Assembly: GCA_001871415.1 (NCBI GenBank)
Contig: MNWW01000002.1
Location: 1-42,690 of the forward strand
Direction of reading: 5' to 3'
Length of the DNA: 42,690 nucleotides
From: Candidatus Woesearchaeota archaeon CG1_02_57_44
GTDB taxonomy: Archaea > Nanobdellota > Nanobdellia > Woesearchaeales > CG1-02-57-44
Shown: positions 1,803 to 18,666 of the stretch, piece by piece
Position numbering within the stretch: the first letter of the stretch is position 1
How the letters are laid out: each line of letters starts with the position of its first letter
The notes under the pieces: model-generated
Told to the model about the DNA's origin: nothing
Seen by the model: only the letters and a program-made list of their open reading frames with translations
Database searches by the model: none
Made by a program: the position numbers and the translations under genes

Positions 1803-3122
1803 CTACACGAACCTTCTCTGCAGCGGGTCCCAGACCTTGCCGCGCTCTGAGCGCTCTGACCGTTCATGGTCGCGATCGCTGCTGCGTGGGCCGGATTCAC
1901 TGCTGCGTCCAAAACCGCCTCTGCTTCCAGAGCTTCCTCGTCCATAGCTTCGCGGGCCGCCTCGTCCACGACCTTCCCTGTCGCCGCGATCGCCACGCGC
2001 ATCAAACGGTATGCGCTCGAACTTGACCATCGGCAGTTTCTGGATATTGACGTGGTGCCTTCCCTGGATCTCACGGAATGCGTCGTGGTCCTTGTTGGAG
2101 AGCAGCGTTATGGCTTTGCCCTGCTCGCCTGCTCGTGCAGTCCTGCCGATGCGATGGATATATTCCTGCGGGTCATTGGCCAGGTCGTAGTTGAAGATAT
2201 GGCTGACATCCTTGATATCTATTCCTCTTGCAGCCACTGCTGAGGCCACGAGCACAGGCGGCTTTCCCTTGTTGAAATCCTCCATGACCGCAAGTCGCCT
2301 GCTCTGGCTCAGCTTGCCATGGATGGCCTCATTGTCAATGCCCTGCTTCTTGAGGTTCCTGGAGACGATATCGACTGTCGCCCGCGTGCTGCAGAAGATG
2401 ATGCATCGATGCACAGACTCCTTACGAAGCAGGTGCATGAGCAAGGAGAATTTCTCCTGTGGTTTGACATCATAGTAGTATTGTTTCAACGCGTCGGCCT
2501 CGACCATGGCCTTGGCCTCAACGACCACCGGGTTTTGCATATGCCTTTGCTGGATGGCCTGTATCTCGCTGGAAAGGGTCGCGCCGAAGAGCAGCATCTG
2601 CTTTTCCGCTGGCATGAATGACATGATGCGTTCGACATCTTCGATAAATCCCATTTCCACCATCTTGTCCGCTTCGTCTAGGACGAACATACTCAGATGG
2701 CTCAGATCGCAATTTCCCTGCTGCAGATGATCGAGCAGTCTTCCGGGGGTCGCGACAATGACTTCGCACTTACGCATCTTCTGTATCTGCAGATCGTAGC
2801 CCACGCCGCCATAGACTGTGGACACACTGGTGTCCTTGCGCCACTTGCGCAATTCATTGGCTATCTGCACAGCGAGCTCGCGTGTGGGGGCCAAGACGAG
2901 CGCCTGAGCGGCTTTTCCCGCCTGCAGGCGCTGCAGCAGCGGGACACCAAAGGCTGCGGTCTTGCCGCTGCCAGTCCTTGATTTGCCGATGACATCCCTG
3001 CCTTCCAGCACCGCTGGAATGGCGTTTGCCTGGATGTCCGTAGGTTCAGTGATCTCCTGCTTGCGCAGGTTGTCGGCAATAGCTTGAGCTACTCCTAAGT
3101 CTTCAAATGTGGTTTCTTCCAT
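1803..3122 (-). CDS. DEAD-box RNA helicase (DeaD/CshA-like)
   Basis: Q-motif, TGSGKT, PTRELA, TPGRLLD, DEAD, ARGID, HRIGRTARAG motifs; RG/RS-rich C-terminal tail. Confidence 0.95.
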   Translation of the reverse strand: MEETTFEDLGVAQAIADNLRKQEITEPTDIQANAIPAVLEGRDVIGKSRTGSGKTAAFGVPLLQRLQAGKAAQALVLAPTRELAVQIANELRKWRKDTSVSTVYGGVGYDLQIQKMRKCEVIVATPGRLLDHLQQGNCDLSHLSMFVLDEADKMVEMGFIEDVERIMSFMPAEKQMLLFGATLSSEIQAIQQRHMQNPVVVEAKAMVEADALKQYYYDVKPQEKFSLLMHLLRKESVHRCIIFCSTRATVDIVSRNLKKQGIDNEAIHGKLSQSRRLAVMEDFNKGKPPVLVASAVAARGIDIKDVSHIFNYDLANDPQEYIHRIGRTARAGEQGKAITLLSNKDHDAFREIQGRHHVNIQKLPMVKFERIPFDARGDRGDREGRGRGGPRSYGRGSSGSRGGFGRSSESGPRSSDRDHERSERSERGKVWDPLQRRFV

Positions 3123-3265
3123 AGTGTTTTACACCTCTGCGACAGGGCAGAGTGAAACAGAAGGAGCATGATGGACTTGTAAGGACTATCAATACTCTCT
3201 GTTTCTGCCGTATCTATACAGGCAATAATGCTCCTGCATTTATAAATCTTCCTCTGTCTAGGCTG

Positions 3266-4249
3266 TTAACGAGTCTTTCTCTTAATTACAGAATCGTACT
3301 CGTCAGCAATCTCTCCTACAATCTCCTCTAGCACGTCTTCCATTGTGATGATACCAACGAACTTGCGCCATTTGTTCTGCACCACAAACAGATGCACCCT
3401 TGCTTTGCGAAACCTGTTAAGCACATCGTCAAGCAACGCGTCATCTCGGATGAACTCTACCCGCCGGCGCATGACCGCGCTCACAGGGGTATTGGTATCT
3501 CCTTCCACCTTAATGAGGTCCTTGCTGTAGAGCATGCCCACTACGTGCTTTTTTATCTTGTCCAGAACAGGGATACGACTGTGTCCTTTTTCCTGTATTC
3601 TTGCCAGCAGGGCTATGGTGAGGACATCTGTTGCCTGCAGGGTGTATGCGAGCTCAATGGCTGTCATGGCATCCTTGACCCTCTTTTCAGAGAATTCCAG
3701 GCCGCCTTCCAAGATATCAAATTCGTCCTCATCCAGTTCAGAGCGCCTGGTCTTTTTCTGGTCATCCAGGAATAGCAATAGCTCTCTTCTACTGAGTACA
3801 TGCGGTCGTTCGTTCCCCATGAGCTTCTCCAGTATCAAGGATAGCGGCTTTGCCACTGGATACAGAATTGCCATGAAAAACCAGGCGAACCATGACATGC
3901 GCGAACCAAGATACATACTGTGACGATAAAAAACCGCTTGTGGCAATATTTCTCCAAAAATCACAATCAATGCCGTAGCAGTGATTCCCGCTATGATGCT
4001 GCTGGTGAGCGAGCCGAGATACACCGCCAGAGCCGCGTTGACAGCTACATTACCGAGCAGCAGTGTGGTGAGCAGAAGCATGGATTTATGCCGTAAAGGC
4101 AATATCTTGGCTGCTTGCATATTGCCAAGCTTAGCCCTGCGCTTGAGCGTATAATAATCAAGGCTCATAAGTCCCAGTGTCAATCCAGAAAATAATCCTG
4201 AAAATCCAATAAGCACAAGCACAACTAAAATACGAAGAAAAGAAATCAT
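3266..4249 (-). CDS. CNNM/DUF21 + CBS-pair protein (CorC/TlyC hemolysin family, putative Mg/Co transporter)
   Basis: FSGLTLGLMSLD, LLLGNVAVN, FGEILPQA, GHSRIPV, GIITMEDVLEEIVGEIADEYD. Confidence 0.92.
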   Translation of the reverse strand: MISFLRILVVLVLIGFSGLFSGLTLGLMSLDYYTLKRRAKLGNMQAAKILPLRHKSMLLLTTLLLGNVAVNAALAVYLGSLTSSIIAGITATALIVIFGEILPQAVFYRHSMYLGSRMSWFAWFFMAILYPVAKPLSLILEKLMGNERPHVLSRRELLLFLDDQKKTRRSELDEDEFDILEGGLEFSEKRVKDAMTAIELAYTLQATDVLTIALLARIQEKGHSRIPVLDKIKKHVVGMLYSKDLIKVEGDTNTPVSAVMRRRVEFIRDDALLDDVLNRFRKARVHLFVVQNKWRKFVGIITMEDVLEEIVGEIADEYDSVIKRKTR

Positions 4250-4252
4250 AGG

Positions 4253-4282
4253 AAAAGAAAAAAATGTACCCTTATGGGTACA
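4253..4282 (-). terminator. hairpin + oligo-T overlapping archaellin stop codon
   Basis: Minus strand TGTACCC-ATAA-GGGTACA followed by TTTTTTTCTTTT. Confidence 0.55.
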
Positions 4283-4853
4283 AGCTGATTCTCTTGTCCA
4301 CCATCAGGTCCGGTGTGGCGGTATCTACGACCAGTGGCGCACCTACCATGGGTACAAGTGTCAGCTTCACATCCTCGCTCTCATTAACAGAGCGGGGGGA
4401 TTGCAGGCATACTTGTACGACATCTCCCTTGGTCAGATATCCTGTCTTATTGTTGGTGCCTGTTATCTGCCACTTCACGCCGAAATTCAGACCGGCTCCC
4501 ATATACGCGGTGTTTGAGCAATCAATGGATTGATTATACTCATAATCTGACGACTGATCCTTTAGGTTTAAGCTTACCAGCGTATCAGTGAAACGTAGCT
4601 CTTCAGAACCTGAGGCGAGCTTTACTGTCCAGTAGATGTAATCCAGGTCTTGGTCGCTGCCATCTTCTCCATAGACCTCGACTGCGCTGAGGCTGGTTCC
4701 TACTTCCTGTGTTGTGGCTTTGCCTGTGGCAAGTGCCTTGTTTTGCAGGGTTCCTGTGGTGCTGATGAGCACGCTTGCGGCTACTGCTGCCACAAGAATC
4801 ATGGCGATGAATATAATCAATGTTCCCATTCCCATCTCAGCTTTCTTTTCCAT
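4272..4853 (-). CDS. flaB: archaellin (A1)
   Basis: Class III signal [38 protein letters not shown]; archaellin-like C-terminus; GGAGG RBS. Confidence 0.93.
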   Translation of the reverse strand: MEKKAEMGMGTLIIFIAMILVAAVAASVLISTTGTLQNKALATGKATTQEVGTSLSAVEVYGEDGSDQDLDYIYWTVKLASGSEELRFTDTLVSLNLKDQSSDYEYNQSIDCSNTAYMGAGLNFGVKWQITGTNNKTGYLTKGDVVQVCLQSPRSVNESEDVKLTLVPMVGAPLVVDTATPDLMVDKRISLYP

Positions 4854-4868
4854 TGTTTTGTCCTCCCT

Positions 4869-5483
4869 CTATGGGTATATCGGAATTCTCGTATCCACCA
4901 TCAGATCTGGCGTACTCGAATCAATAACCATAGGTGCGCCCACCATAGGCATCATAGTCAATTTAACTCCTTCACTTTCATTAATCGCCCTTGGCGTCTT
5001 AATGCATACCTGCACGACATCTCCCTTTGTCAAGTACCCGCTCTTGTTGTTGGTTCCTGTAATCTGATAGTTCACTCCAAAATTTGATTGATTTAATAAG
5101 GTCATATTATAGGCAGCGCTGACATTCTGATAGTAACTCGTATTGGCACAACGCACCGACGTATTATACTGATAATCCAATGAAGAATCCTTGAGATTGA
5201 GGCTAAGCAGCGTATCTTGCAACCTGATTTCATCTGATCCGCTTGAAAGTTTTATTGTCATGAACAAGTATTCTATATCTTGGTCGGTTCCATCTTCGCC
5301 ATATGCCTCAATCGCTCTGAGTGATGTTCCAACTTCCTGGCTAGTCGCTTTTCCCGTACTCAACGCTTTATTTTGTAAAGTTCCCGTGGTGCTTATCAGA
5401 ACCTTCGCAGCTACCGCGGCGACCAGAATCATAGCTATAAAAATGATGAGGGTGCCCATGCCCATCTCGGCCTTTTTATCCAT
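4869..5483 (-). CDS. flaB: archaellin (A2)
   Basis: Same N-terminal pilin-like helix; GGAGG RBS; many NxS/T sequons. Confidence 0.93.
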   Translation of the reverse strand: MDKKAEMGMGTLIIFIAMILVAAVAAKVLISTTGTLQNKALSTGKATSQEVGTSLRAIEAYGEDGTDQDIEYLFMTIKLSSGSDEIRLQDTLLSLNLKDSSLDYQYNTSVRCANTSYYQNVSAAYNMTLLNQSNFGVNYQITGTNNKSGYLTKGDVVQVCIKTPRAINESEGVKLTMMPMVGAPMVIDSSTPDLMVDTRIPIYP

Positions 5484-5535
5484 TGAATTCTCCTCCGCCC
5501 GACCAATAATCTACATCCTTTTCCGGATGTTCTGA

Positions 5536-5552
5536 TATATATACTTGTCGGT
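5536..5552 (-). promoter_or_regulatory. BRE-TATA promoter for archaellins A2-A1
   Basis: Minus strand ACCGACAAGTATATATA. Confidence 0.55.
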
Positions 5553-5597
5553 CGTCTTTATAAACGAGGGGTGTGAATCTGTATCTTAGTTGGGGTT

Positions 5598-6215
5598 CTA
5601 TGGATAAATGGCTATGCGGCTGTCCACCATCAGGTCTGGCAGGTTCCCTTCGACCAGGAGTGGCGCCCCTATCATGGGGACGATAGTGACCCTAAACTTT
5701 TCACCCTCAAATATGTCTCGGGGCGTTTTCAGGCAGATCTGCACTACATCGCCTTTTGTGATATATCCGCTTCTGTTGTTGGTTCCCGCAATCTGGTACT
5801 TTATTCCAAAATTGGACTGGTTGAGCAGGGTCATATTGTAGGCCGCGCTGACATTGTGATAATAACTGACGTTATCGCAGCGCACAGAGCTGTTGTACTT
5901 ATAGTCGTAGGATTGATTGCTGAGACTGAATGAGAGCAAAGTGTCTCCGATACGTAGGGGATCTGAGCCTGAATTGAGCTTAATAGTCTGAAAATAATAC
6001 TGCACACTCTGATTCTCTCCATTCTCGGCGTAGGCTTCTACTGTTTTGATGCTGGTTCCCACTTCCTGGGTCGTAGCTCTTCCGGTTCCCAACGCCTTGT
6101 TCTGCAGATTGCCTGTGGTGCTGATGAGCACGCTTGCGGCTACTGCTGCGACCAGTATCATGGCTATGAATATGATAAGGGTTCCCATTCCCATTTCCGC
6201 TTTTTTATCAGTCAT
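5598..6215 (-). CDS. flaB: archaellin (A3)
   Basis: [27 protein letters not shown]; archaellin motifs. Confidence 0.93.
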
Positions 6216-6264
6216 CACTCAAATCGCCACCAATATACATAAGTCTATACTTATGGGGGATAGT

Positions 6265-6281
6265 CATATAAATACCTTTCG
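6265..6281 (-). promoter_or_regulatory. BRE-TATA promoter for archaellin A3
   Basis: Minus strand CGAAAGGTATTTATATG. Confidence 0.6.
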
Positions 6282-6665
6282 ATATTGTCTTACAAAGATC
6301 TCTGAAACCCAGCGTTTTTCGCACAGTCTCGCAGTAGTCGTGGCTGATTCATCTAGACTCACCTATTCCTTGCGTAGAAAGGGAATTCATCGTCAGAATC
6401 ATTAAGTCTGCAGAAACTTGAGACTCCTTGCGATGGGTACATGCACCGTCCTTCAGGACGCGCCACCTATCGCAAGAATCAGACGCAAAAATCCTTTGCG
6501 GGCTTTTGAGCGTGAACATCCTGGGGTGTTCGCTGAATCCCGCGCGGTTCGACAAGTCACACTCAATGTGAAGCAAACTCTTCTTACAAAGTCCTCTTTC
6601 ATATCAACGCTAATAATGCCCTGATTAGAAGCAGACTAAAAAGAAAAAAGATTAAAAAATAAAAT

Positions 6666-7253
6666 TTATGGGTAAATGCTTACCCTGGTATCGACCATCA
6701 AATCAGGTGTTGTCGAATCAACGACCAGCGCTGAACCGACCATGGGTATCAGACTGATCTTGAGATCCTCAGCTTCATTGATTGGCCTTGGCATGTGCAG
6801 GCACAATTGGACGACATCACCCTTTGTCAGATAACCCGTCCTGTTATTAGTTCCTGTTATCTGCCATTTTGCTCCGAACATGGCCGAACTGGCATTGAAC
6901 TGGCTTGTATTCGTGCAATCAACGCTCTGATTATATCCATAATCGCTAGATATGTCATTCAAGTTCACGGTGACCAGCGTATCTATCAATCGAATCTCAT
7001 CTGATCCCGAGGCCAGTTTGATAGTCTCATAGATGTATTCCAGGCTTTGGTTGCTGCCGTCCTCTCCGTACAGCTCGACCGCGCTGAGGCTGGTTCCAAC
7101 TTCCTGCGTGGTGGCTTTGCCTGTGGCAAGTGCCTTGTTTTGCAGGGTTCCTGTGGTGCTGATGAGCACACTTGCTGCGACCGCTGCGACCAGTATCATG
7201 GCAATGAAGATGATGAGTGTACCCATGCCCATCTCAGCTTTCGTTCCTTTCAT
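6666..7253 (-). CDS. flaB: archaellin (A4)
   Basis: [15 protein letters not shown]...; GAGGT RBS; T-rich tract downstream. Confidence 0.93.
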   Translation of the reverse strand: MKGTKAEMGMGTLIIFIAMILVAAVAASVLISTTGTLQNKALATGKATTQEVGTSLSAVELYGEDGSNQSLEYIYETIKLASGSDEIRLIDTLVTVNLNDISSDYGYNQSVDCTNTSQFNASSAMFGAKWQITGTNNRTGYLTKGDVVQLCLHMPRPINEAEDLKISLIPMVGSALVVDSTTPDLMVDTRVSIYP

Positions 7254-7324
7254 GATATCGACCTCATTTTTTATTGGCTACTCTCAAATGTCAATAATAC
7301 ATGTTATTTTTTTGGGAATACTTG

Positions 7325-7340
7325 TATATTAATCTGTCGA
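7325..7340 (-). promoter_or_regulatory. BRE-TATA promoter for archaellin A4
   Basis: Minus strand TCGACAGATTAATATA. Confidence 0.5.
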
Positions 7341-7423
7341 TTAACTTTCGAATCTATAAAATTCAGACTTTTTCAATCAAAACGGTCTTATGCCGTCTCT
7401 GACTCCATGCCCGGCCTGACTCT

Positions 7424-8008
7424 TCATGGAAATAAAGAGACTCTCTTGTCCGTCACCTGATCAGGAACCGAGACCTCCAGTATGGTTGGTGAACCTGCCA
7501 TGGGGGTGATGCTCACGCGTATTTTTTCCCCTTCCCGTATTTCTCTTGGTGCGATCATGCAGACCTGGATGACATCTCCTCTGACAAGATAACCACTCTT
7601 ATTGTTAGTCCCTGTGATCTGATATTTGACGCCGAAATCTCCCCCTGCGGCAAGCGTGCTTGTGTCAGTGCACGAACCTGAAGCGCTATAGAGGTAGTCT
7701 GCGGTCGTGTTTGACAATTGCATCCTGATAAGTGTATCACTGAATTTTATGGCGTCTGATCCTGCTCCAAGTTTCACGGAAAGGTAGAGGTGATCGACCG
7801 TCTGATTGGATCCATCTTCTCCATACAACTGGACGGTTGAGATGACCGTGCCGACCTCTTGTGTCGTGGCCTTACCAGTGGTCAATGCCTTTCCCCGCAG
7901 CGCGCCTGTTGTGCTGATGAGCACACTAGCCGCGATTGCTGCGACCAGTATCATGGCTATGAAGATGATGAGTGTACCCATCCCCATTTCAGCGTTCTTA
8001 TCCACCAC
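7424..8008 (-). CDS. flaB: archaellin (A5)
   Basis: GTG start, [25 protein letters not shown]. Confidence 0.92.
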   Translation of the reverse strand: MVDKNAEMGMGTLIIFIAMILVAAIAASVLISTTGALRGKALTTGKATTQEVGTVISTVQLYGEDGSNQTVDHLYLSVKLGAGSDAIKFSDTLIRMQLSNTTADYLYSASGSCTDTSTLAAGGDFGVKYQITGTNNKSGYLVRGDVIQVCMIAPREIREGEKIRVSITPMAGSPTILEVSVPDQVTDKRVSLFP

Positions 8009-8042
8009 AACACCCCCCCATGAGTATCAGGTAGGGGGGTCT

Positions 8043-8057
8043 TATTTAAAGATTTCG
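8043..8057 (-). promoter_or_regulatory. BRE-TATA promoter for archaellin A5
   Basis: Minus strand CGAAATCTTTAAATA. Confidence 0.6.
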
Positions 8058-8216
8058 TCTATGCTGATGCGCCATGCCGCAGGATCGCCGACGACACAAG
8101 TGCCGCCTTGGGCCTCTGCGTCCGCAGCTGGCGGCCAAACAAATCTGGATGGCGCATGGGCCTTGAACAAAGAACCCTTGAACAAAGCTCAACGCGTTCG
8201 GTCAAAGAACCCAGAA

Positions 8217-8244
8217 TAATAAAAAATTCCCGTATTCACGGGAA
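8217..8244 (-). terminator. hairpin + oligo-T overlapping archaellin A6 stop codon
   Basis: Minus strand TTCCCGT-GAAT-ACGGGAA then TTTTTTATT. Confidence 0.55.
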
Positions 8245-8856
8245 GATGTGGATGCGCTTGGCAATCATTAGCTCAGGTGCGCTGCTTTCCGTAACAACAG
8301 GGTTGCCGACCATGGGCACGATGGTGACCTTGATGTCTTCACCTTCGCGCACCTTCCTGGGCGATTGCCAGCACAGCTGGATGACGTCGCCTTTGGTGAC
8401 ATAGCCGCTTTTGTTGTTCGTTCCTGTTATCTGGTACTTCATGCCAAAATCTCCGCCCGCTGACATGGTGCTGATGTCATCACAATCAACACTTGCGCTG
8501 TATCCGTAGTCCTGGGACACGTTATTCAGACCTACGGTCATCAGCATGTCTGCCAGTCTGACGGGATCAGAACCGCTGGACAATTTCACGCTCTGATAAA
8601 AATAGTCCACTGTCTGCGCTGTCCCGTTCTCTGCGTAGATGCGCACCACCTGGATGCTGGTGCCAACCTCTTGTGTAGTAGCCTTTCCTGTCGCAAGAGC
8701 CTTATTCTGGAGATTGCCCGTGGTGCTGATGAGCACGCTTGCTGCGATTGCCGCGACAAGTATCATGGCTATGAAGATGATGAGTGTGCCCATTCCCATC
8801 TCAGCCTTGCGCCTCAGACGATGCATTCTCCTTCCGCTTTTTTCGTGATTCGACAT
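8236..8856 (-). CDS. flaB: archaellin (A6)
   Basis: Longer basic leader ...[25 protein letters not shown]. Confidence 0.92.
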   Translation of the reverse strand: MSNHEKSGRRMHRLRRKAEMGMGTLIIFIAMILVAAIAASVLISTTGNLQNKALATGKATTQEVGTSIQVVRIYAENGTAQTVDYFYQSVKLSSGSDPVRLADMLMTVGLNNVSQDYGYSASVDCDDISTMSAGGDFGMKYQITGTNNKSGYVTKGDVIQLCWQSPRKVREGEDIKVTIVPMVGNPVVTESSAPELMIAKRIHIFP

Positions 8857-8933
8857 GATATCACCTCTTATTATCCTGGTGTTGATGTTAATATGTCAAT
8901 ATACATTTTAGTACCCTAATTTGGTGTATCATG

Positions 8934-8947
8934 TATATAAGCTTTTC
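8934..8947 (-). promoter_or_regulatory. BRE-TATA promoter for archaellin A6
   Basis: Minus strand GAAAAGCTTATATA. Confidence 0.6.
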
Positions 8948-9342
8948 TCTCTATCCCTTATAAGGTATTTAAAGAACTCGGGTATGGCGATGGCATCTTT
9001 ATAAGCAATATATCAACAAGACTAATGCTATCAATAGCTATCAATAAGACGTATGCGTCCTACCTGTCTTGGACGCGAATATCGATTGCCATAGCAACTG
9101 TCGCTGCCAAAATCCGGCATGTATCAGGTATTGCACAATTATCTGTACGAACCCTTTTCACAAAGAATTATTGCTGACCTAATCCTGGATTATCCTAACA
9201 TGCTATTGCATTAACTGGCACTCTCTTTTTTCAAGGAATCCTATACAGAACGCTATACATCACGCGCGTGGTTAAGTCGAGAATTCATTTCAACTTCTGG
9301 AGCACTACCTTTTCAGAGAAAACGGATTAGAAAAAATACAGT

Positions 9343-9375
9343 AAAAAAGAAAAAATATGTACCCTTATGGGTACA
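9343..9375 (-). terminator. hairpin + oligo-T overlapping archaellin A7 stop codon
   Basis: Minus strand TGTACCC-ATAA-GGGTACA then TATTTTTTCTTTTTT. Confidence 0.55.
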
Positions 9376-9952
9376 GGCTGATGCGCTTATCTACCATCAG
9401 GTCCGGTGTCGCTGTGTCAACCACCAGCGGGGAGCCGACCATCGGGATGAGACTTACCTTGATGCTCTCGCCCTCAAGCACTTCTCTTGGCGCGACAAAG
9501 CATACCTGCACCACATCTCCTTTCGTGAGATAGCCGCTCTTGTTGTTGGTGCCGGTGATCTGATACTTGATGCCGAAATCTCCACCCACTACCAGGCTTG
9601 TTGAAGTGTCGCAGTCATACGCTGATGCGTACTCATAGTCAGCAGATGTGTTGTCCAGATTCATGCTGAGCAAGGTATCGCTAAAGCGGATCTCGTCAGA
9701 ACCCGAGGCCAATTTAATGGTCATGTACATGAAATTGACAGACTGGTTGGTTCCGTCCTCGCCATACAATTCGACTGCGCTGAGGCTGGTTCCTACTTCC
9801 TGTGTGGTGGCTTTGCCTGTGGCAAGTGCCTTGTTTTGCAGGGTTCCTGTGGTGCTGATGAGCACGCTTGCGGCGACTGCTGCCACAAGAATCATGGCGA
9901 TGAATATAATCAATGTTCCCATTCCCATCTCTGCCTTTCGTTGCCAATGCAC
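9365..9952 (-). CDS. flaB: archaellin (A7)
   Basis: GTG start after [20 protein letters not shown]. Confidence 0.92.
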   Translation of the reverse strand: MHWQRKAEMGMGTLIIFIAMILVAAVAASVLISTTGTLQNKALATGKATTQEVGTSLSAVELYGEDGTNQSVNFMYMTIKLASGSDEIRFSDTLLSMNLDNTSADYEYASAYDCDTSTSLVVGGDFGIKYQITGTNNKSGYLTKGDVVQVCFVAPREVLEGESIKVSLIPMVGSPLVVDTATPDLMVDKRISLYP

Positions 9953-10045
9953 CCCATATCACCTCAATTGGTTTACCAGTTCCATTTCGACAAATACTGC
10001 CATTAACTACCATTATACTATACTGCTCTACTCTGGCACACGTGG

Positions 10046-10061
10046 TATATATACTTTTTGG
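10046..10061 (-). promoter_or_regulatory. BRE-TATA promoter for archaellin A7
   Basis: Minus strand CCAAAAAGTATATATA. Confidence 0.55.
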
Positions 10062-10197
10062 TTTTCAAGCGATAGAGCGATACCTTGGATATGCCTTCGT
10101 ACTGGTCCAATTGACAAATGAATTTACCAATGTGTCCATCGTGGTATTCGCTTTTGAGAACCTGTTGCAGAATAGTGTCCTGACAATGGGCTCTGCG

Positions 10198-11874
10198 CTA
10201 TCCAAGCATGCTGCCAAATCCCGGGATGATGTTTTGCGTTGCTGCGGGGATGACGACGCTCAGTACTGCGCCTATCCAGAGCATGAAGACCAAATCTATG
10301 AAACTCGCGGATAACATACCGCCGTCTACCAACTTCACAATGACGCTAGAGATGACGCTGTGTACGATAATAAGGATGCCGATGAGCAGCAGGACCCTGT
10401 CCATATTCGTTGCGGCAAGGTTCGGCGAGATGCCTCCGAGCACATCCTGCATATTGCTCGCTCCTTGCATGGGCGAGGAAAAGACTCCTCCGATGATTTC
10501 TGAAATTTTTGCTGTGACATAGATGGACGCGGAGAACCCGACCAGCGACCCATACAGGGCGCCTTTGAGGCCTGATGCGAGCTGCAGTCGCTGCATGCGC
10601 AAGGATACAAGCCTCTGAAAGTTCCTGCTGACTATCTCTCCCACCTTCTCTCCATCGCCTCCGAGGTAGATGGATTCGCTGAAAATCTTGCTGAAGTGCT
10701 GGATAAGGTGGCTTCCGGACTCTCCTGCGAAAAACAGCCAGCATTCGAATTTCTCAGATCCGACACGAAGCCTGCGATACAGATTGTGCATCATATCATT
10801 GATGGGTCCGAAGTCGTGCACCAGGATGATTTTCAGGCTGCTGAGCATCGCGCCATTACGCGCGCGTACAGCTGAACCAAGTGATCTGACAAAAGCCGGA
10901 AAGAAGGTGTCTCGGCGGAGTACATCCTGCTCTTCCCGCGTGGCCAGCCATCCTGGAATAATCAACGGTGTCGCACCAATAGCGACGCCGACCAGGAATG
11001 GCAGTCGGGTAAAAAATACAAGAATTATCAGCAGTATGGCTGAGATGGGCGCTGTTATCAGGACTGTCAGACGCACTTTTCGCATGCCGGGGTCTTTGAC
11101 TTGCAGGTTATGGCAGATCTTGTCAGCAGGAACGAGCGCTTTGACCAGGAACAATATGACGCCGTCGATGACGACGATGGTGAGGATGGCGTACTGAGCA
11201 ATGACTTCCAGACTGATGCCCATGAGTAGTGGCATCAGCAAAGAGATGCTGAGCATGAACGCTATAGCCACGGTCAGCGAGGTGAACAGGCTTTCTATCA
11301 TCCTGATGCTTTCCAGGCTTTTCTTGTACTCTAGCTCATACGCGTCCATGACCGCGTCCTGTTCTTCCAGCAGGAATGTTTCGATGTCCTGGCCAAAGTC
11401 CATGGCGACCGCGAAGCGGTCAAGAAAATCCGCGAATGCCTCGCTTGGTGAGAGCGCGCCAATCCGCTTGCATGTTTTGGGAAACCCCATGGTCCATTTC
11501 TTGGCGAGATAGAAAATTTTTTCCGCTATCTTGGATATCTCGCCAAACGCGCGCTTGCTGGCTATAAGGCGGAACAACACGGTCCTGTTGATTTTCATGG
11601 TGCTGACTGTGCCAGCGTAGGTGATGAAGAAATGCAAGTTGCCGTCAATGTCTGTTTTCTTGTTGAGAAACAGACCAAATGGATAGACAATCATGAACAA
11701 TGTGCCAAGGACGAGAGGTATTGCTGCCAGGGAGCGGGTGATGGGAATGAACGCGAATACGACAGCGCAGGCGATACTGGTGCCCAGCGTGGGTAGGGCG
11801 AACTTGAGCAGATATTCTGACACGGACAGATACCCTAAAGTCGCTATTGCTCTGGAAAGGTTGAATCGTTTCAT
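10198..11874 (-). CDS. flaJ: archaellum membrane platform protein FlaJ/ArlJ
   Basis: 558 aa multi-TM GspF/TadC-like protein; FADFLDRFA, RRLRVG, FAGESGSHLI, GEIVSRNF motifs; follows flaI. Confidence 0.93.
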   Translation of the reverse strand: MKRFNLSRAIATLGYLSVSEYLLKFALPTLGTSIACAVVFAFIPITRSLAAIPLVLGTLFMIVYPFGLFLNKKTDIDGNLHFFITYAGTVSTMKINRTVLFRLIASKRAFGEISKIAEKIFYLAKKWTMGFPKTCKRIGALSPSEAFADFLDRFAVAMDFGQDIETFLLEEQDAVMDAYELEYKKSLESIRMIESLFTSLTVAIAFMLSISLLMPLLMGISLEVIAQYAILTIVVIDGVILFLVKALVPADKICHNLQVKDPGMRKVRLTVLITAPISAILLIILVFFTRLPFLVGVAIGATPLIIPGWLATREEQDVLRRDTFFPAFVRSLGSAVRARNGAMLSSLKIILVHDFGPINDMMHNLYRRLRVGSEKFECWLFFAGESGSHLIQHFSKIFSESIYLGGDGEKVGEIVSRNFQRLVSLRMQRLQLASGLKGALYGSLVGFSASIYVTAKISEIIGGVFSSPMQGASNMQDVLGGISPNLAATNMDRVLLLIGILIIVHSVISSVIVKLVDGGMLSASFIDLVFMLWIGAVLSVVIPAATQNIIPGFGSMLG

Positions 11875-11979: not shown

Positions 11980-13605
11980 CTAGACCTTGAAGGGGAGCGC
12001 TTTGACGCCCCCGAAGTGGTAGAGCTTGGTGATCTTCCAGACATCGTAATAATTGAATATCTTCTCTTCTACCATACGCCTGATGATGTTCGCGCGCAAT
12101 GTCAGTTCATCGTATATCTTCCTTGGATCAGCGTAGCCCTGGGCCATGGCTATCTTCTGCTCGAGGATGTAGCTGTTGAACATGCCCCGAAAGTTGTGCA
12201 CATCGTCCTGCGCGTTCCAGTCAAAGACGGTCCTGGTAATCATTTTCTTGAGGGGCTCATAGTAGCGCTCGATCTCCGTGAGGCTGACAATGCGCCTTGC
12301 CATACTGCCATGCAGGCGGATAGCGAGCTGGATGAGCACCAGGTTGAGGTTGTCAACAAACGTGATGGGGACACTAATGGGATGGCCCGTGATACGCTGT
12401 ATCATACTGGTGGGACTTGCCGCGTGAAACGTGCTGAGTACGGGGTGGCCTGTCTGCATGGCCTGGAAGGCGATACTGCCTTCTTTTCCGCGGATCTCTC
12501 CCACAATGATGTAGTTGGGGCGTGACCTGAGGGCCGCGGCCAGCAAGTCATCGTAGGTGACATCAGAGCTTTTTCCGGCTTCCCTGGTGAGCAGGTGCTG
12601 CCACACATCATGGGGCAGCTTGACTTCTGGTGTGTTCTCTACACTGTAGACTTTGTCGTCTGGTTTGATGAAGGTGCAGATGGCGTTGAGTGTGGTGGTC
12701 TTGCCTGAGGCGGTCTCTCCGCAGATGAACATGTTCATGCCGTTTTCCAGGGCGATCCAAAGGTATGCGCCCAGTTCGGCGCTCATGGTGCCCCAATTGA
12801 CGATCTGCGGAACGCTGGTGGGTACATCGGAAAACTTACGCAATGTGAAGCTGCTGCCTTCCAGGCTGATGTCTCTGCCGTAGATGAAGTTGGCGCGGCT
12901 GCCATCGGGCATCATGGCGTCTACCACGCTATGGGCGTCTGATGTTGGGCGCTCGACGCGCTCGGACACCTCGACGATATAGCGGTTGAGCTCCAGATCA
13001 TCACGGAAGATGACGCTGGTGTAGACCAGGCCGAAGATCTTATGGACGGTCTTGATGGCGCCAACACCCGTGCAGTGGACGTCCTCCAGATACGGGTCTT
13101 TGAGGATGGGATCAATCTTGTGAAATCCTATCCTGTTGCGTATCAGGAAGTACTTGATGAGCTCGAACTGCTGAGGGGTCATGACTACTTTGCTGCTCAA
13201 TCCTGCTTTAGCGCCGCTTTCTGTGACCTGGCAGACCTTCTGGAGCAGCTCTATCAGGATCGGCTCGATTTTGTCCAGTTTTTCCGGGACTGGCAGGCTA
13301 TGGGCTATCTCGATGAGCTTGTCCATGACCCTCTCAAAGAGCTTCTCGTCTTCAGGCTCCATGACTGGCTCAATGGCATAGTACTGGACCTGTCCGAATT
13401 CGTTCTTGTAGATGTGGATGAAAATAGGATCCCCCACTGGATAGATGAGGTTGGGCATCTTCATGCTCTTCATTTCCCGGCCCAGTTCAGGGTAAAACTC
13501 AGGTACTCCTCTCTCAGCGGCAATAGACTTGAGATATTTTTCTACATGAGGAAACTTCTTGCGAGCTTCGTCCAGATTCTTTGTGATGACTTTTTCCATG
13601 CCCAC
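11980..13605 (-). CDS. flaI: archaellum assembly/motor ATPase FlaI/ArlI
   Basis: NLIYPVGDPIFIHI N-terminus, GETASGKTT Walker A, RSRPNYIIVGEIRG, FQAMQTGHPVLSTFHA. Confidence 0.96.
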   Translation of the reverse strand: MGMEKVITKNLDEARKKFPHVEKYLKSIAAERGVPEFYPELGREMKSMKMPNLIYPVGDPIFIHIYKNEFGQVQYYAIEPVMEPEDEKLFERVMDKLIEIAHSLPVPEKLDKIEPILIELLQKVCQVTESGAKAGLSSKVVMTPQQFELIKYFLIRNRIGFHKIDPILKDPYLEDVHCTGVGAIKTVHKIFGLVYTSVIFRDDLELNRYIVEVSERVERPTSDAHSVVDAMMPDGSRANFIYGRDISLEGSSFTLRKFSDVPTSVPQIVNWGTMSAELGAYLWIALENGMNMFICGETASGKTTTLNAICTFIKPDDKVYSVENTPEVKLPHDVWQHLLTREAGKSSDVTYDDLLAAALRSRPNYIIVGEIRGKEGSIAFQAMQTGHPVLSTFHAASPTSMIQRITGHPISVPITFVDNLNLVLIQLAIRLHGSMARRIVSLTEIERYYEPLKKMITRTVFDWNAQDDVHNFRGMFNSYILEQKIAMAQGYADPRKIYDELTLRANIIRRMVEEKIFNYYDVWKITKLYHFGGVKALPFKV

Positions 13606-13632: not shown

Positions 13633-14376
13633 TCAGCTTGCGCTGGTGATTTCCATGACAATGCCGACTCCTGCCCTGACGCGAAACGCGATGTTCTCCT
13701 CCACATCAGATACCGCCCCGTTGAAGCGTTCTACTCTGATGAGTTTGGTCACCGTGCCAAAGCGCTCTACCGTGCCCAATTTCATATACACTTCTGAGAC
13801 GCTCTTGAGCAAGGTCGAGTAGGTGTTGTCATATTGCTCAGGGTCGATGGTGAAGATGATGCTCTTGTCCTGGCTGGTGACTTTGCGAAAGAACTTGATG
13901 ACCTCAAAGGCCTCCTTGAGCGACACATCATCAGGCACTATCCACCCATTCAGGGAATCGAAGATGATGACGTCGCTGTGAAACAGCTCTTCCATGCGTA
14001 GCCGTGAAAGAACGCTCCTGCCCACGTTAGTATCACCTACATACGGGAAGACTGACACGAAATTCAGCTGGCCGGTGACCAGCGCGTCATTGATATCGTA
14101 TTGCAATGATTTCATCTGATTGACGAAGCTCGGCAATGACAGCTCGGTGCTGACATAGGTGACTGAGACGCCGTGGCATACCAGACCATAGCAGAAGCGC
14201 TGGGCGATGATGCTCTTGCCAAGCGCGTTGCGGCCTTCAACTAGCATAAAACCATTCTTTGGCAAGCCTCCGCCGAACTTGTTGTGCAGTTCATCCTTGC
14301 GGATGCGGATGGGGAATACTCCTGAGGGTGCGGCAATCTGACTTGGATCCGGAACCTGTAATGCTGCTTCTGCCAT
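13633..14376 (-). CDS. flaH: archaellum RecA/KaiC-like protein FlaH/ArlH
   Basis: DELHNKFGGGLP, GRNALGKS, YVSTE, IIFDS, FRVRAGVGIVMEI. Confidence 0.93.
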   Translation of the reverse strand: MAEAALQVPDPSQIAAPSGVFPIRIRKDELHNKFGGGLPKNGFMLVEGRNALGKSIIAQRFCYGLVCHGVSVTYVSTELSLPSFVNQMKSLQYDINDALVTGQLNFVSVFPYVGDTNVGRSVLSRLRMEELFHSDVIIFDSLNGWIVPDDVSLKEAFEVIKFFRKVTSQDKSIIFTIDPEQYDNTYSTLLKSVSEVYMKLGTVERFGTVTKLIRVERFNGAVSDVEENIAFRVRAGVGIVMEITSAS

Positions 14377-14504: not shown

Positions 14505-14969
14505 TCATGCGATACTAAAACTGTCAAGATCCTTTCCTCCATACTGCGTGGTCACCGTGACCGTGTGGGTACCCGCGCCGATATGATCATAGACAATGGC
14601 CTGGGCGCTCTCATCAGGGTCCCAGATGCCCGGATTGACCAGTTCGGTGTCATTGAGCACGGAGAGGTTTCGGGCGGTCGTATTGCGTAGGTAGCGTAGT
14701 CCATCAATGAACACGTCTGTCAGATTGACCGTGAGCTTGGTCTTGCCGCTGTTAAGGATGGTGATCGTAGTATAGTTATGGGTCGTATTGTAATTCACAT
14801 TAGTGATGGTTATATCTGTCTTAAGATTGCTGGCCATCAGATCCTGACGAACACCAAGCGCTGCGCCTGATTCCGTTATATAGCCTTTGAAAAGGATGGC
14901 GACCGTGGTCGTCACGGAGAGTAGTGCGATAAAGAGAATCAGGTGCGATGCCACATTGCCGAATCCCAT
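14505..14969 (-). CDS. flaG: FlaG/FlaF-like archaellum stator protein
   Basis: MGFGNVASHLILFIA N-terminal TM, KTDITI, NSGKTKL, DVFIDG, WDPDE; ATG 14969 has an upstream GAGG. Confidence 0.8.
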   Translation of the reverse strand: MGFGNVASHLILFIALLSVTTTVAILFKGYITESGAALGVRQDLMASNLKTDITITNVNYNTTHNYTTITILNSGKTKLTVNLTDVFIDGLRYLRNTTARNLSVLNDTELVNPGIWDPDESAQAIVYDHIGAGTHTVTVTTQYGGKDLDSFSIA

Positions 14970-15060
14970 CCTCAGGTCCCTCTCGTCATGTTCATTGTGT
15001 TCATCTGCCCGAGCCCTGCAAAAGCGGTTATTCGGTAATCCCAAATAAGCAGACCAATGG

Positions 15061-15130: not shown

Positions 15131-15706
15131 ATGGAAGGCTGCGTCTCCTACAATCGCAAGAGCTTCGAGCTGCTGGATTTCCTGCCTTCAGACATGGACG
15201 CAGGGCTGAAAAGCACTATCAACCAGTATTGGCACCAGCGCATTGCCCGTGAGATTCTCATAGCGCTCAGTAGCGCCGAGGAGATACCCATGTCGCAGCT
15301 GCGCGACCAGATAGGTCACAGCGCATCGACGCTACATGAGAATATCAAGCGTCTACAGGAAGTGGGTCTCATTGAGGCTGAGATGAGCTTCAAGGGCAAC
15401 AAGCAGCTGCTGCTGCGGCCACGCGTCATCTTTGTGTCAGACAATCCGAAGGTGGCGGCCGCGTTCCAGAAATTCTTTCAGGGACTGTTTATTGACACCA
15501 ATGCCACTAAGATTGTCCTCGCGTTCCTCAACGAGAACCCTGACAAATTCTTCACCTCAGCGGAAATAAGCTCAAGGACCAATATGCCAAAGACGCAGGT
15601 GGAAATAGCGCTCTCAAACTTGGAATCCCCGATTACGCGCGCCTACTCAACGTTCTACCGCTCCGCACCATTTGAGAAGCAGATTAGCTATCGCATCCGT
15701 AAATGA
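15131..15706 (+). CDS. ArsR/winged-helix transcriptional regulator with two HTH-like units
   Basis: MSQLRDQIGHSASTLHENIKRLQEVGLI and FTSAEISSRTNMPKTQVEIALSNL. Confidence 0.8.
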   Translation: MEGCVSYNRKSFELLDFLPSDMDAGLKSTINQYWHQRIAREILIALSSAEEIPMSQLRDQIGHSASTLHENIKRLQEVGLIEAEMSFKGNKQLLLRPRVIFVSDNPKVAAAFQKFFQGLFIDTNATKIVLAFLNENPDKFFTSAEISSRTNMPKTQVEIALSNLESPITRAYSTFYRSAPFEKQISYRIRK

Positions 15707-15839: not shown

Positions 15840-17900
15840 TTAGAGCATACCGCGAAGCAATGACATGTCCTGCGCGAGCATCTGGAGCATGTGAGCCGCG
15901 TCTCGAGCACCAGCTATGCTTTGAGCGAGGTCAGGCATAGCCAGAACGCCTCCTACCCACAAGGAAAAGTCATTTCGCTGTCCGGTGACATGATGTTGAA
16001 ACGCTTCAGGCCTCATGCTGCCAAGCCCATGGGCTAATTCCAGGAGATTGCGCACGCATATCCTGTCACAGGTCCAGAACGCGCGCTCGGGAGCCGCTTC
16101 TTCGAGCAGTCGCATGACCTGCCGGAGGAATTCCTGCTGCTGCTGGCGAGGTACTGATAGATCAACAATGCTGGTGGCATTGGCCCAGGGGTTTTGGCCT
16201 TGAAGCACCTGTAGGACCAGGGTGGACCTGTTGTTGATCGCCAACAGCGCTGCCTGCCTTGTTGTGGTGCTTTCAAGTGCTCTTCCCAGTCCTGGCAGAT
16301 GCAAGCTATTAGACACCCAGGATGAAAAATCGCCGTGTTGCTGGTGGCCTTGGTATGTTGCCTCATCCAAAGACTGGATGCACTGCGCCAGTTCCAGCAC
16401 ATTGCGGACACAGGTGCCATTGACCGTCCAGAATGCGTGCTCCTGCGATGTCTCGTGCAGCAGCAAGAGCAGTTCTTGAATAAAGCGTTTCTGCTGCTCC
16501 GCTGGCAGCCGGGGAAGCAGCAACTGCAACTCCTTTGCGACAGCCTCTTGCTGGCGTAGCTCCTGCATGGTACGGTCCAGCAGAGCATTGCGCTCTTCCT
16601 CTGGCAGTTTGGCCAACAGACGGGTAAGGGTTTCATTGTCGCTGGCGGGGTTTGCTGCAGCGCCAGCCGCAACGGTCGTAGGTTGCCCGAACACAGGAGG
16701 AGTAGGCACCTGCACTGCGGCAGCAGTGATAGGCATTGGTTGCGTTGTAGCCTGAGGCGCAGGTGGCATCCCAGAAGGCGCACCTGTTTCGTTACTCGTC
16801 GTGGATTGCGAAGTGAGGGACTCTTTAGGTCGAAGGTCGCCCGCTCTTCCAATCATGGTCTGGTTGCTGGTCATGGATTCCATTATTTCGGATGCGCCAG
16901 ATGTATTGACCGTGGTGGAAGGATTCCTTGGCGTATCCTGATCTTGCAGCACACGGGGTATCTCGGGCATCACCGATATGGGTTGCGGCGCAGACTTCGG
17001 CGTATCTGCTGTCAGGTTATCAGCAGCTGTCGCAATGCTCGTCTCCGAGCCCTCGTCAGCATCAGGTGCAGTCCTTGATGCCTTATCGATATCAGGATTT
17101 CCAGCAACTCCTGCAACCACCGGCTCGACTGAAGCTGTAGGTCCGCTGATTTCTTTGGCGTGCAGGGATGCGATGGCATCCTCCAATTTGGGAATGGCTA
17201 TCTCCTCTGATGTATGCTCGACAGGATGCGCTTTTTGTGGAGAGCCGCCTAGTAGGTCCTTAGCGCCCCTGACAAATTCCTCTGACCTCTGAGCGCTATG
17301 TGCAGTGATGGCCGCCTCCTGGGTCTGTTTTGTGATGGAATCTTCGATACTGATAGACGCTGTTCCTGTCGATCCACCTGCTCCCGACGCATTGTTACCA
17401 GGCACGTGTATGCCTTCTTGCGGAGGCGCTGCACTAGCCTGCTGCCGCTGCTCAGCTGAGTGATTGGCGCTGCTGTGCCCATTGGTCTGCTCATCCACGA
17501 AGGGATTGAATTTATTCGTTATGAGTTCATACAGTCTGGTGAATTTTTCCAAAGAAGCCTCTATCTTGTCGATGCTCTTGAACTTCTCCTGCAGCGACAC
17601 CATGTCAATATCACCGCTGCTTTGCTTGGCCGCATCATTGACCTTCTTTTCCAGCGCTGCGACTTTGTCGTTCAGCGTATCATGAAGTTCCTTCAACTGG
17701 TCTTCTATCACTTGTAGTAATTGCTCTTCATGACCAGAACTCTCTTCCTGTTCATCAGCAGGAGCATCCGCAGTCTCTCCGGATGCAGCTTCAGCAGGGG
17801 CTTTGGCGTCCACTGCAGGCGCGCCAGGCACAGCTCCCGCAGGTCGTGCTTCTGGTTCTTTTTTTCGGCCTTTCAGGAAGGAAAAGCCTTTGACTGCCAT
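15840..17900 (-). CDS. FlaC-like archaellum accessory protein fused via long low-complexity linker to two DUF5752-like domains
   Basis: Coiled coil ending in LYELITNKFNPFVD (FlaC signature); two repeats of AFWT-x2-G/R-x-CVRN-x-LEL...H...DFS-x-WV. Confidence 0.8.
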   Translation of the reverse strand: MAVKGFSFLKGRKKEPEARPAGAVPGAPAVDAKAPAEAASGETADAPADEQEESSGHEEQLLQVIEDQLKELHDTLNDKVAALEKKVNDAAKQSSGDIDMVSLQEKFKSIDKIEASLEKFTRLYELITNKFNPFVDEQTNGHSSANHSAEQRQQASAAPPQEGIHVPGNNASGAGGSTGTASISIEDSITKQTQEAAITAHSAQRSEEFVRGAKDLLGGSPQKAHPVEHTSEEIAIPKLEDAIASLHAKEISGPTASVEPVVAGVAGNPDIDKASRTAPDADEGSETSIATAADNLTADTPKSAPQPISVMPEIPRVLQDQDTPRNPSTTVNTSGASEIMESMTSNQTMIGRAGDLRPKESLTSQSTTSNETGAPSGMPPAPQATTQPMPITAAAVQVPTPPVFGQPTTVAAGAAANPASDNETLTRLLAKLPEEERNALLDRTMQELRQQEAVAKELQLLLPRLPAEQQKRFIQELLLLLHETSQEHAFWTVNGTCVRNVLELAQCIQSLDEATYQGHQQHGDFSSWVSNSLHLPGLGRALESTTTRQAALLAINNRSTLVLQVLQGQNPWANATSIVDLSVPRQQQQEFLRQVMRLLEEAAPERAFWTCDRICVRNLLELAHGLGSMRPEAFQHHVTGQRNDFSLWVGGVLAMPDLAQSIAGARDAAHMLQMLAQDMSLLRGML

Positions 17901-17967: not shown

Positions 17968-18576
17968 TTACCTAATCCTGATACGCGCTCTCAGGAACAC
18001 GTCCGGAACACGCAGATCCAATATCTCACTCGCGCCGGAGCTCGCCACAAGAGACAACTCGAAATCATCTTGGCTGCCCAGCGCGTGCGTGGTATTCAGT
18101 TTATATCGCACAGCAAGCAACTCTCCAGCTTCCAGCAGGATATTGGTGTTACCGACTTTCGGGAATATGCAATATTCCTCCTGGTTCTGAAGGTTATCAA
18201 ACGTGCAATTGGCGATGGTGCTGATAGACTGATTCAGGTCCGCAGACAAGGTAGTCTCTCCGGAAACAAAGCTTAGTCCAACAGAACTGAAGGATACAGG
18301 ATCCGCGCCCGCTCCCAGCCTGGTTATCAACTCAATGTTCTCGATGTTTTCCGCGGTGAGGTTCGGATACGCATACACATTGAGGACCTCAAGGCCACTG
18401 ACCAGTCGCGTCCTTGCTGCCTCTTCCACAAGAAGCGCTTTCTGCTGCAATTGTCCTGTGACCTTGACAAGGACGCCTGCCGCGACCGCGGATACAAGAA
18501 TAGTCGCGATGAAGATAATGAGCATACCTATGCCCATAATGGCCTTACGGTCTTGGAACCAGTGAATTTTTGTCAC
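17968..18576 (-). CDS. flaB: divergent (minor) archaellin A8
   Basis: DRKA/IMGIGMLIIFIATILVSAVAAGVLV..GQLQQKA; likely GTG start at 18576, about 24 nt below a CAAAAAGTTTAAATA promoter (18600-18614). Confidence 0.85.
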   Translation of the reverse strand: MTKIHWFQDRKAIMGIGMLIIFIATILVSAVAAGVLVKVTGQLQQKALLVEEAARTRLVSGLEVLNVYAYPNLTAENIENIELITRLGAGADPVSFSSVGLSFVSGETTLSADLNQSISTIANCTFDNLQNQEEYCIFPKVGNTNILLEAGELLAVRYKLNTTHALGSQDDFELSLVASSGASEILDLRVPDVFLRARIRIR

Positions 18577-18666
18577 CTGCAGGTCATTCCCCTTGTTGGT
18601 ATTTAAACTTTTTGCTGACATGGACACAGATACTGATAGTAATCTATGCGCATCTAAAGATGGCAT

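Follow-up and report, generated by a model that had tools for sequence, protein, structure and literature searches.

A seven-gene archaellin array in a Woesearchaeota genome, with predicted partly separate transcription units and an operator-like palindrome at two promoters

In this study, we analysed a tandem array of seven archaellin (ArlB) genes at positions 4272–9952 of a 42,690-nt stretch of DNA (the window) from the groundwater archaeon Candidatus Woesearchaeota archaeon CG1_02_57_44. The window derives from contig C26 of a 1.53-Mb genome (G000; 77 contigs, 82% complete). An earlier note, made from the sequence alone, had taken the array for a candidate filament-switching or surface-variation system in a probable DPANN genome, and the DPANN origin is correct. 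The seven open reading frames (ORFs) are intact, co-oriented on the minus strand and 193–206 aa long:

4272..4853, minus strand: ArlB A1, 193 aa; no promoter of its own, 15 nt downstream of A2; three N-glycosylation sequons
4869..5483, minus strand: ArlB A2, 204 aa; seven sequons; a sequon-rich loop insertion common to A2 and A3
5598..6218, minus strand: ArlB A3, 206 aa; eight sequons; predicted first gene of an A3–A2–A1 unit
6666..7253, minus strand: ArlB A4, 195 aa; T-rich tract 3' of the stop codon
7424..8008, minus strand: ArlB A5, 194 aa; the most diverged copy; no T-tract downstream
8236..8856, minus strand: ArlB A6, 206 aa; own promoter; terminator of hairpin plus T-tract
9365..9952, minus strand: ArlB A7, 195 aa; the array gene nearest to arlJ; highest promoter score; terminator of hairpin plus T-tract

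When 24 ORFs of the window were scanned against domain profiles, all seven array ORFs matched PF01917 with 98.5–112.4 bits (cut-off 29.5; E 6.7e-28 to 3.6e-32). Their closest PDB sequences are the archaellins 7ofq and 5o4u. Pairwise identity among A1–A7 is 54–76%. The N-terminus is near-invariant and the block QI(T/A)GTNN(K/R)(S/T)GYxx(K/R)GD is conserved, as the earlier note had described. Its statement that the copies differ strongly in the middle holds for the strength of the divergence and not for its place, since the whole globular domain varies, including the C-terminal third. Each protein has a class III signal peptide followed by a long hydrophobic helix, and in all seven one or more basic residues precede a 17-residue segment; cleavage is predicted, and a prepilin peptidase gene (PF01478 match) lies on contig C54. 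An AlphaFold2 model of mature A1 (pLDDT 89.6), which supersedes a poor earlier model on eight sequences (pLDDT 59.2), predicts a helix at residues 2–47 (46 residues) followed by nine strands in a beta-sandwich head. An alignment of 102 family members shows two conserved cysteines, one kept in 80 and the other in 81 of the sequences. The net charge of the heads ranges from −9 to +3 across the copies, and each array archaellin has 3–8 sequons; N-glycosylation is predicted, and an STT3 (AglB) gene is present on contig C70.

The array is real. Two contigs from Joint Genome Institute (JGI) metagenomes are colinear across it: L171 covers 6246–11716 and L172 covers 2427–8220, both gap-free and in the same gene order, with two differences and one difference, respectively (99.96–99.98% identity). 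The three single-nucleotide polymorphisms (SNPs) include two inside archaellin genes, both synonymous, and there are no indels. Short-k contigs from four sequencing runs gave even depth over the array, with the depth of each gene near that of the flanks. These contigs break at the common 5' repeats and nowhere else in the array, a pattern that could suggest strain variants mis-assembled into a false tandem, the alternative named in the earlier note. However, L171 and L172 run ungapped across these repeats, per-gene depth stays near flank depth and the copies are no more than 54–76% identical. We therefore consider mis-assembly refuted and give it practically no weight. No joints or indels were found within the array in any of the four runs; run X1 may be the window's own source and X3–X5 come from other studies, the runs and JGI contigs may all sample one aquifer population, and contigs conceal rare variants.

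The copies are old. Over the globular domain, the proportion of synonymous differences (pS) was 0.70–0.97 in 28 pairs, which is saturated, and that of nonsynonymous differences (pN) was 0.21–0.38 and below pS in every pair, indicating long purifying selection. Positive selection on the variable regions, for which the earlier note had proposed a dN/dS test, left no sign on surface loops (no dN/dS above 1 in the 28 pairs), in a test limited by saturated dS, under which episodic selection could escape detection. The constant 5' part has a different history, as three tracts show:

4678..4838, minus strand: gene-conversion tract in A1, the same as A7 at 159/161 nt; codes for the N-terminal helix
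9771..9931, minus strand: gene-conversion tract in A7, counterpart of the A1 tract
7108..7169, minus strand: shorter conversion tract in A4, sharing 62 identical nt with A7 and 59 with A1

A permutation test on synonymous codons gave p<5e-5 for A1–A7 and A4–A7 and 0.0013 for A1–A4, with identical synonymous codons at 48/51 vs 38/84 for A1/A7; the remaining 25 pairs had no conversion signal that survived correction. Because the significant tracts fall in the helix-coding part alone, gene conversion homogenises the constant 5' part of these genes and not the variable head. We rejected 5' homogenisation as a rule for the family: within-genome synonymous identity over 175 pairs averaged 0.51 for N-termini and 0.54 for heads, and significant conversion pairs in relatives were occasional and in both directions.

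Nine ArlB genes of this genome are intact, namely the seven of the array, the divergent B8 upstream of the machinery genes (below) and one on contig C54; a further copy, on contig C57, is frameshifted. The earlier note had counted eight. The C54 gene (C54:6254–6931) has a longer loop with an extra cysteine pair, eight sequons and the prepilin peptidase gene on its contig. The C57 pseudogene (C57:23745–24440, locus L005) has two frame breaks, one of them a 20-nt tandem duplication, which are the same in all four runs; its promoter is intact. A tree was built from 38 globular domains taken from the nine nearest groups. Its genome labels change 8 times, the minimum (shuffled mean 25.2), so the paralogs group by genome. 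No paralog class other than B8 was conserved across genomes. The array has thus arisen by birth-and-death expansion of true archaellins within this lineage, with one dead copy. In a relative, locus L056 has two archaellins repeated in tandem as exact 1508-nt copies (4177–5684 and 5714–7221), a duplication that is either very recent or an assembly artefact.

Such a history might need no paralog-specific role at all, if duplications raised the output of an abundant protein and the heads then diverged neutrally within structural limits. In agreement with this, the variable columns among the seven copies are those of the family (column entropy, Spearman 0.69), no pair has pN above pS, the number of matches per genome varies from 1 to at least 8, the pseudogene is fixed in four runs and, in one lake study, flaB was reported among the most expressed Woesearchaeota genes (PMC11606122). 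Pure dosage, however, predicts near-identical copies, yet synonymous sites are saturated; conversion extends over the helix but not into the head, and an operator-like palindrome (below) marks only a subset of the promoters. We regard this explanation as improbable.

We searched 401 genomes of the order with an alignment of window proteins (E≤1e-25), scoring at most eight candidates per genome; matches are not copy numbers. The archaellin alignment was matched by 64 of the 401 genomes. The 63 other than the present one had a median of four matches, with at least five in 21 and at least seven in nine. Locus L049 has nine archaellins in tandem behind a B8-type gene. In a phylum-wide sample, 27/301 genomes matched, all but one in the same order, and 53 pattern matches in viral contigs included no relative. 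On these sequence matches, archaellin expansion appears to be lineage-wide, with many separate expansions in many families of the order. The rarity of many archaellins assumed in the earlier note was thus overstated, also in view of the seven genes published for Halohasta litchfieldiae (below). Several database records titled uncultured Methanosarcinales (L040, L042, L050–L051, L056–L059 and others) carry Woesearchaeota-type loci; the titles look wrong, because those that could be matched (e.g., L042 to genome G225) are placed in this order.

For promoters, we used a matrix of the transcription factor B recognition element and TATA box (BRE–TATA) with the consensus CCGAAACCTTTATATA. It was trained on the genome's own upstream regions, 685 in number and possibly including those of the array. 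The best sites upstream of A2–A7, and the terminator at the end of the array, are as follows:

5536..5551, minus strand: predicted BRE–TATA of A2, 14.6 bits
6267..6282, minus strand: predicted BRE–TATA of A3, 15.9 bits
7325..7340, minus strand: predicted BRE–TATA of A4, 11.2 bits, the lowest
8043..8058, minus strand: predicted BRE–TATA of A5, 16.3 bits
8934..8949, minus strand: predicted BRE–TATA of A6, 16.0 bits
10046..10061, minus strand: predicted BRE–TATA of A7, 18.0 bits, the highest
4265..4282, minus strand: hairpin plus T-tract closing the array after A1

Of 877 coding controls, at least 99.7% score below these promoters (11.2–18.0 bits), which lie at the 68th–99th percentile among upstream regions. 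A1 has no BRE–TATA (1.5 bits) and starts 15 nt past A2 behind GGAGG. These results agree with the six promoters and the ribosome-binding-site coupling of A2 to A1 read in the earlier note. T-rich tracts (11–13 T in 15) follow A7, A6, A4 and A1, accompanied by a hairpin at A7, A6 and A1 (the A7 hairpin is the same as that of A1), and none was found after A5, A3, A2 or arlJ (5–8 T in 15). Since only four genes are followed by such terminators, about four units are predicted: A7, A6, A5–A4 and A3–A2–A1, the last two having a further promoter inside the unit, at A4 and at A2, respectively. Separate units for A5, A3 and A2 are unsupported, as no T-tract lies downstream of them. The idea that each gene is separately switchable is supported in part: six promoters are predicted and two of them carry the palindrome, but three of the genes lack a terminator. 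In relatives, 91 adjacent arlB pairs comprise 44 that are tightly coupled, 38 with a promoter between and 9 with neither, and in L114, whose array also has seven genes, a short gap precedes each of genes 2–6 (5/6 downstream genes). Other seven-gene arrays are accordingly predicted to be mostly polycistronic, suggesting that separate promoters are common but dispensable in such arrays and that many paralogs are commonly co-expressed in the archaellin family.

Several smaller elements lie between the genes. An inverted repeat (C6...G7) at 8008–8036 would mask the A5 ribosome-binding site in a transcript reading through from A6. Past the A2 TATA box, at 5504–5521, there is a perfect inverted repeat, ACATCC-N6-GGATGT, with the spacing of the conserved palindrome described next and a different sequence. 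Between A3 and A4 (about 6420–6560) lies a small hairpin-rich repeat, with diverged copies on contigs C53, C43 and C4, that looks like a miniature mobile or repetitive extragenic palindromic (REP) element; an Rfam scan of 3500–19500, which includes this repeat, gave nothing at E≤1. The GC content of the array and its left flank (3000–10000) is 45–50% vs 57% for the genome; the nearest homologs are nonetheless within the order.

Reading the archaellin promoters of relatives revealed a palindrome, AGTATAC-N6-GTATACT, positioned shortly past the TATA box. In two array promoters, a similar site covers the position at which transcription is predicted to start, at a distance of 31 and 32 nt from where the BRE begins:

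6232..6251, strand not assigned: operator-like palindrome at A3, two mismatches, 15 nt past the A3 BRE–TATA
8898..8917, strand not assigned: operator-like palindrome at A6, three mismatches, 16 nt past the A6 BRE–TATA

The promoters of A2, A4, A5 and A7 score at background. A first reading, the motif ATGTA-N-ATTG in A2, A3, A4 and A6, was dropped in favour of the palindrome. With up to three mismatches, the palindrome occurs in 20/124 arlB promoters vs 4/260 promoters of other genes in these loci (p 1.5e-7, a value to be read with the facts that kin are not independent and that the motif derives from the same data). Enrichment occurs at spacer 6 only, and 0/17 B8-type promoters carry it. Perfect copies are present in 104/401 genomes of the order vs 5 for a reversed control (100/397 without four unpublished genomes, G277, G125, G190 and G368). 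An unbiased screen of 6-mer palindromes ranked AATATA and AGTATA (spacer 8, same site) first, with p 0.005–0.015 and a control that included seven arlB promoters. Because the conserved palindrome marks two of the six promoters, it is a sign of differential control, and the units are likely, on this predicted layout, to be partly separate and differentially regulated.

Outside archaellin loci, the palindrome adjoins genes that encode secreted proteins, a pilin, an FtsZ, a PRC-barrel protein and a small ribbon-helix-helix (RHH)-like protein, also in archaellin-less genomes. Many sites adjoin unrelated or unknown genes, and most of the perfect ones precede surface or unknown proteins. Its position across the order is often 2 nt past the TATA box or about 5–15 nt ahead of the BRE. 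It recurs right past the TATA box of a secreted family of 230–260 aa without a Pfam match (L034, L104, L147, L156 and L175), possibly a major surface protein and not found in the present genome, and in the promoter of a cytoplasmic protein of 235–334 aa without a confident Pfam match (L153, L159 and L177). The best site in the present genome (one mismatch; C20:25363–25382) is ahead of the promoter of a 45-aa Cys-rich ORF. A three-mismatch site at C13:3467–3486, a level of mismatch that is background in this genome, covers the promoter of a gene that by eye resembles a diadenylate cyclase.

Two known regulators offer a comparison. aCcr1 is reported to bind AGTATTA in the interval from the TATA box to the start and to repress, and for CdrS a symmetric site is described at ftsZ1, dacZ (a target in Haloferax) and a PRC gene (PMC8406309, PMC9976878, PMC9976892). 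The palindrome half-site resembles AGTATTA, and the candidate site likewise lies past the TATA box. Some of its neighbours in relatives (ftsZ, the PRC-barrel gene and the small RHH-like gene) resemble CdrS targets, but this genome has no cdrS–ftsZ pair and no small RHH ORF ahead of either ftsZ; one RHH-like gene is located on contig C68, ahead of a pilus ATPase gene. We treat the apparent likeness to CdrS and aCcr1 as a lead only. In a literature search that left most subscription journals outside its reach, we found no publication on this palindrome or on archaellin arrays in Woesearchaeota; the order-wide archaellin expansion and the operator-like palindrome are the new parts of this work. 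As a tentative proposal, which we hold to be possible rather than probable, Woesearchaeota repeatedly built large archaellin sets, and an undescribed order-wide palindrome-binding regulator controls a selected part of the archaellins and, along with them, pilins, major secreted proteins and genes for division. If true, the filament coat would differ between the free-swimming stage and host-attached or dividing ones, and the palindrome would be a first handle on life-cycle control in uncultured Woesearchaeota. This operator model predicts that A3–A2–A1 and A6 covary, apart from A7 and A5–A4.

The same promoter layout could serve ecoparalogs, each unit making its own near-homopolymeric filament in a given condition or life stage. 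Six promoters with four terminators, a palindrome on two promoters only, and long retention under purifying selection of heads that differ in charge and sequons are in line with this, and ArlA2/ArlB of Haloarcula marismortui provide a precedent (bioRxiv 10.1101/836379, PMC8821640). On the other side, A2 and A1 are coupled, A5, A3 and A2 lack terminators, many related arrays are polycistronic and B8 is the only paralog class conserved between genomes. Ecoparalogs rank as a minority explanation, and they are the part of the earlier note's idea that can best be defended. The units may be used in a condition-dependent way.

Switching by DNA rearrangement is a different matter. In stochastic phase or antigenic variation, cells would switch or recombine archaellin heads against viruses or for new hosts. 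The direct repeats of 59–161 nt at the 5' ends of A1, A4 and A7 could permit swaps of promoter and head or deletions, and virus evasion through archaellin change has been proposed for haloarchaea (PMC10117864). However, the 24 scanned ORFs of the window include no recombinase or invertase, and no long near-perfect inverted repeats flank the promoters. Homopolymers of at least 7 nt occur only at 4258, 7307 and 8013, and no repeat tract is suited to slippage. Neither the four runs, within the limits stated above, nor the two synonymous SNPs give any trace of rearranged or altered heads. Every copy except A1 has a promoter, so there is no set of promoterless silent cassettes; the C57 pseudogene also keeps its promoter and has at most a short 5' likeness to the array. 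Because no invertase, repeat tract, silent cassettes or rearrangement was found, a phase-variation switch is unsupported. We consider it very unlikely, and the surface-variation or filament-switching system of the earlier note, for which positive selection is also missing, is not borne out. Flagellin phase variation in Salmonella and pilin variation in Neisseria are known switching precedents. Like Neisseria pilE/pilS and Salmonella flagellin, the array combines a constant N-terminus, a variable surface domain and gene conversion between copies. Unlike them, it has no silent promoterless cassettes, single expression locus or invertase, and its conversion is confined to the constant part.

The array follows the archaellum machinery genes. 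On the minus strand, the order is arlB8, arlCDE-like, a divergent winged-helix gene, arlF/G, arlH, arlI, arlJ and then A7 to A1:

10198..11874, minus strand: arlJ platform protein, NF004704 E 2e-131, below its cut-off
11980..13605, minus strand: arlI motor ATPase, NF058587 681 bits, passing the cut-off of 550
13633..14376, minus strand: arlH, NF052589 209.6 bits, just below the cut-off of 215
14505..15044, minus strand: arlF/arlG-type stator gene, one only
15131..15706, plus strand: winged-helix regulator, divergent from arlF/G
15840..17900, minus strand: arlCDE-like protein, weak PF05377 match (E 5.6e-6)
17968..18666, minus strand: ArlB B8, about 30% identity to A1; a separate conserved subfamily, upstream of arlCDE

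In a tree of the order's archaellins, from which 30 partial, over-long or motif-less ORFs were left out beforehand, B8-type genes form their own clade, and 16/22 of them directly precede an arlCDE match, the position of arlB3 in Methanococcus. B8 is likely a minor or cell-proximal subunit. Model archaella require both ArlF and ArlG. The present genome has one arlF/G-type gene at its 82% completeness, with no space for a second in the locus; one such gene was also seen in G295 (L039) and the single-contig G093 (L093), and two in G164. The winged-helix protein of the locus is single-copy, with 34–49% identity across the order. It belongs to no named family (generic winged helix-turn-helix plus a weak Lrs14 match) and has no adjoining methyltransferase. 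Because it is restricted to archaellin-positive genomes (42/64, vs 0/337 other genomes of the order), it is likely an archaellum regulator. We set it aside as a binder of the palindrome, which it probably is not, because the palindrome occurs in genomes in which this protein was not found (G225, G033 and archaellin-less ones).

We propose, with moderate confidence, that the paralogs are co-expressed at graded and regulated levels from the four or so predicted units, so that the filament is tuned rather than switched. All copies would share one ArlIJ motor, since they hardly differ in the helix that forms the filament core, and the mix of copies would alter the surface and stability of the filament, because the heads differ in charge and in the number of sequons. 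An order-wide regulator acting on the palindrome over the A3 and A6 starts may turn down these two units, which comprise four genes including the two most sequon-rich, according to growth or life stage, and B8 would form a minor proximal part of the filament. Comparable behaviour is reported elsewhere: archaella of H. salinarum hold all five archaellins, M. villosus alternates two (PMC10117864, bioRxiv 10.1101/836379, PMC8821640) and intergenic T-tracts tune arlB levels in Pyrococcus (PMC10665913). Several points weigh against our proposal. Condition-specific use would account just as well for the six promoters and four terminators, and a single archaellin was reported in the filament of several many-gene archaea (bioRxiv 10.1101/836379). 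Within the present genome, the palindrome at three mismatches is at background (19 sites vs 13–22 for other spacers), so the A6 site rests on its position and on relatives. The monophyly of the genome's own eight rows in the tree has a support of 90/73 and is not starred, and CheW was not found in this 82%-complete genome. The resulting ranking places tuned mixed filaments as most likely and ecoparalogs next, with stochastic switching unlikely.

Sets of seven archaellins, ecoparalogs and heteropolymers have already been published. Tandem multiple archaellins with conserved 5' ends are described as the norm, with no consensus on their role (PMC10117864). Hht. litchfieldiae has seven archaellin genes, for which minor-subunit, ecoparalog and heteropolymer models are discussed, and Hrr. 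lacusprofundi ACAM 34 lost flaB1 by recombination between conserved 5' ends (bioRxiv 10.1101/836379); ArlB1 and ArlB2 alternate in a filament (PMC8821640). An archaellum is reported for 167 Nanobdellati genomes (PMC13705601). The present array is therefore an extension of a known theme and not a new switching machine. Its copy number is close to the highest found; it lies in a reduced genome, among independent comparable expansions, and bears on the purpose of multiple archaellins and on the passage of DPANN archaea between hosts.

The closest counterparts are the euryarchaeal clusters. Like ArlB1–3 of Methanococcus, the five tandem arlB genes of Thermococcus kodakarensis and arlB0–2 of Pyrococcus furiosus, the locus has tandem arlB genes with conserved 5' ends, arlCDE/F–G/H/I/J machinery, T-tract terminators between arlB genes and a divergent, ArlB3-like arlB before arlC. 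In those clusters, however, the arlB genes precede the machinery under a single promoter controlled by EarA, whose TACATA-like site is upstream of the BRE and whose target cluster has intergenic terminators (PMC10665913). Here, the array follows arlJ and has six promoters, one arlF/G gene and a candidate 7-6-7 palindrome past the TATA box. Haloarchaea share lineage-specific duplications (five co-assembled archaellins in H. salinarum, seven in Hht. litchfieldiae, the ecoparalogs of Har. marismortui and the Halorubrum ArlB1/B2 heteropolymer), a similar identity (theirs 55–60%), separate operons and an equal or similar copy number. Unlike in haloarchaea, nine intact copies occur in a 1.5-Mb DPANN genome, seven of them in one array, and the expansion recurs across the order. 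Among DPANN archaea, Nanobdella aerobiophila also has an archaellum, with a distinct proximal segment; its major archaellin is reported as the second most expressed gene and its free cells swim (bioRxiv 10.1101/2023.10.27.564410, PMC11104419). Its two arlB homologs and scattered genes contrast with the ordered locus and the nine arlB genes described here.

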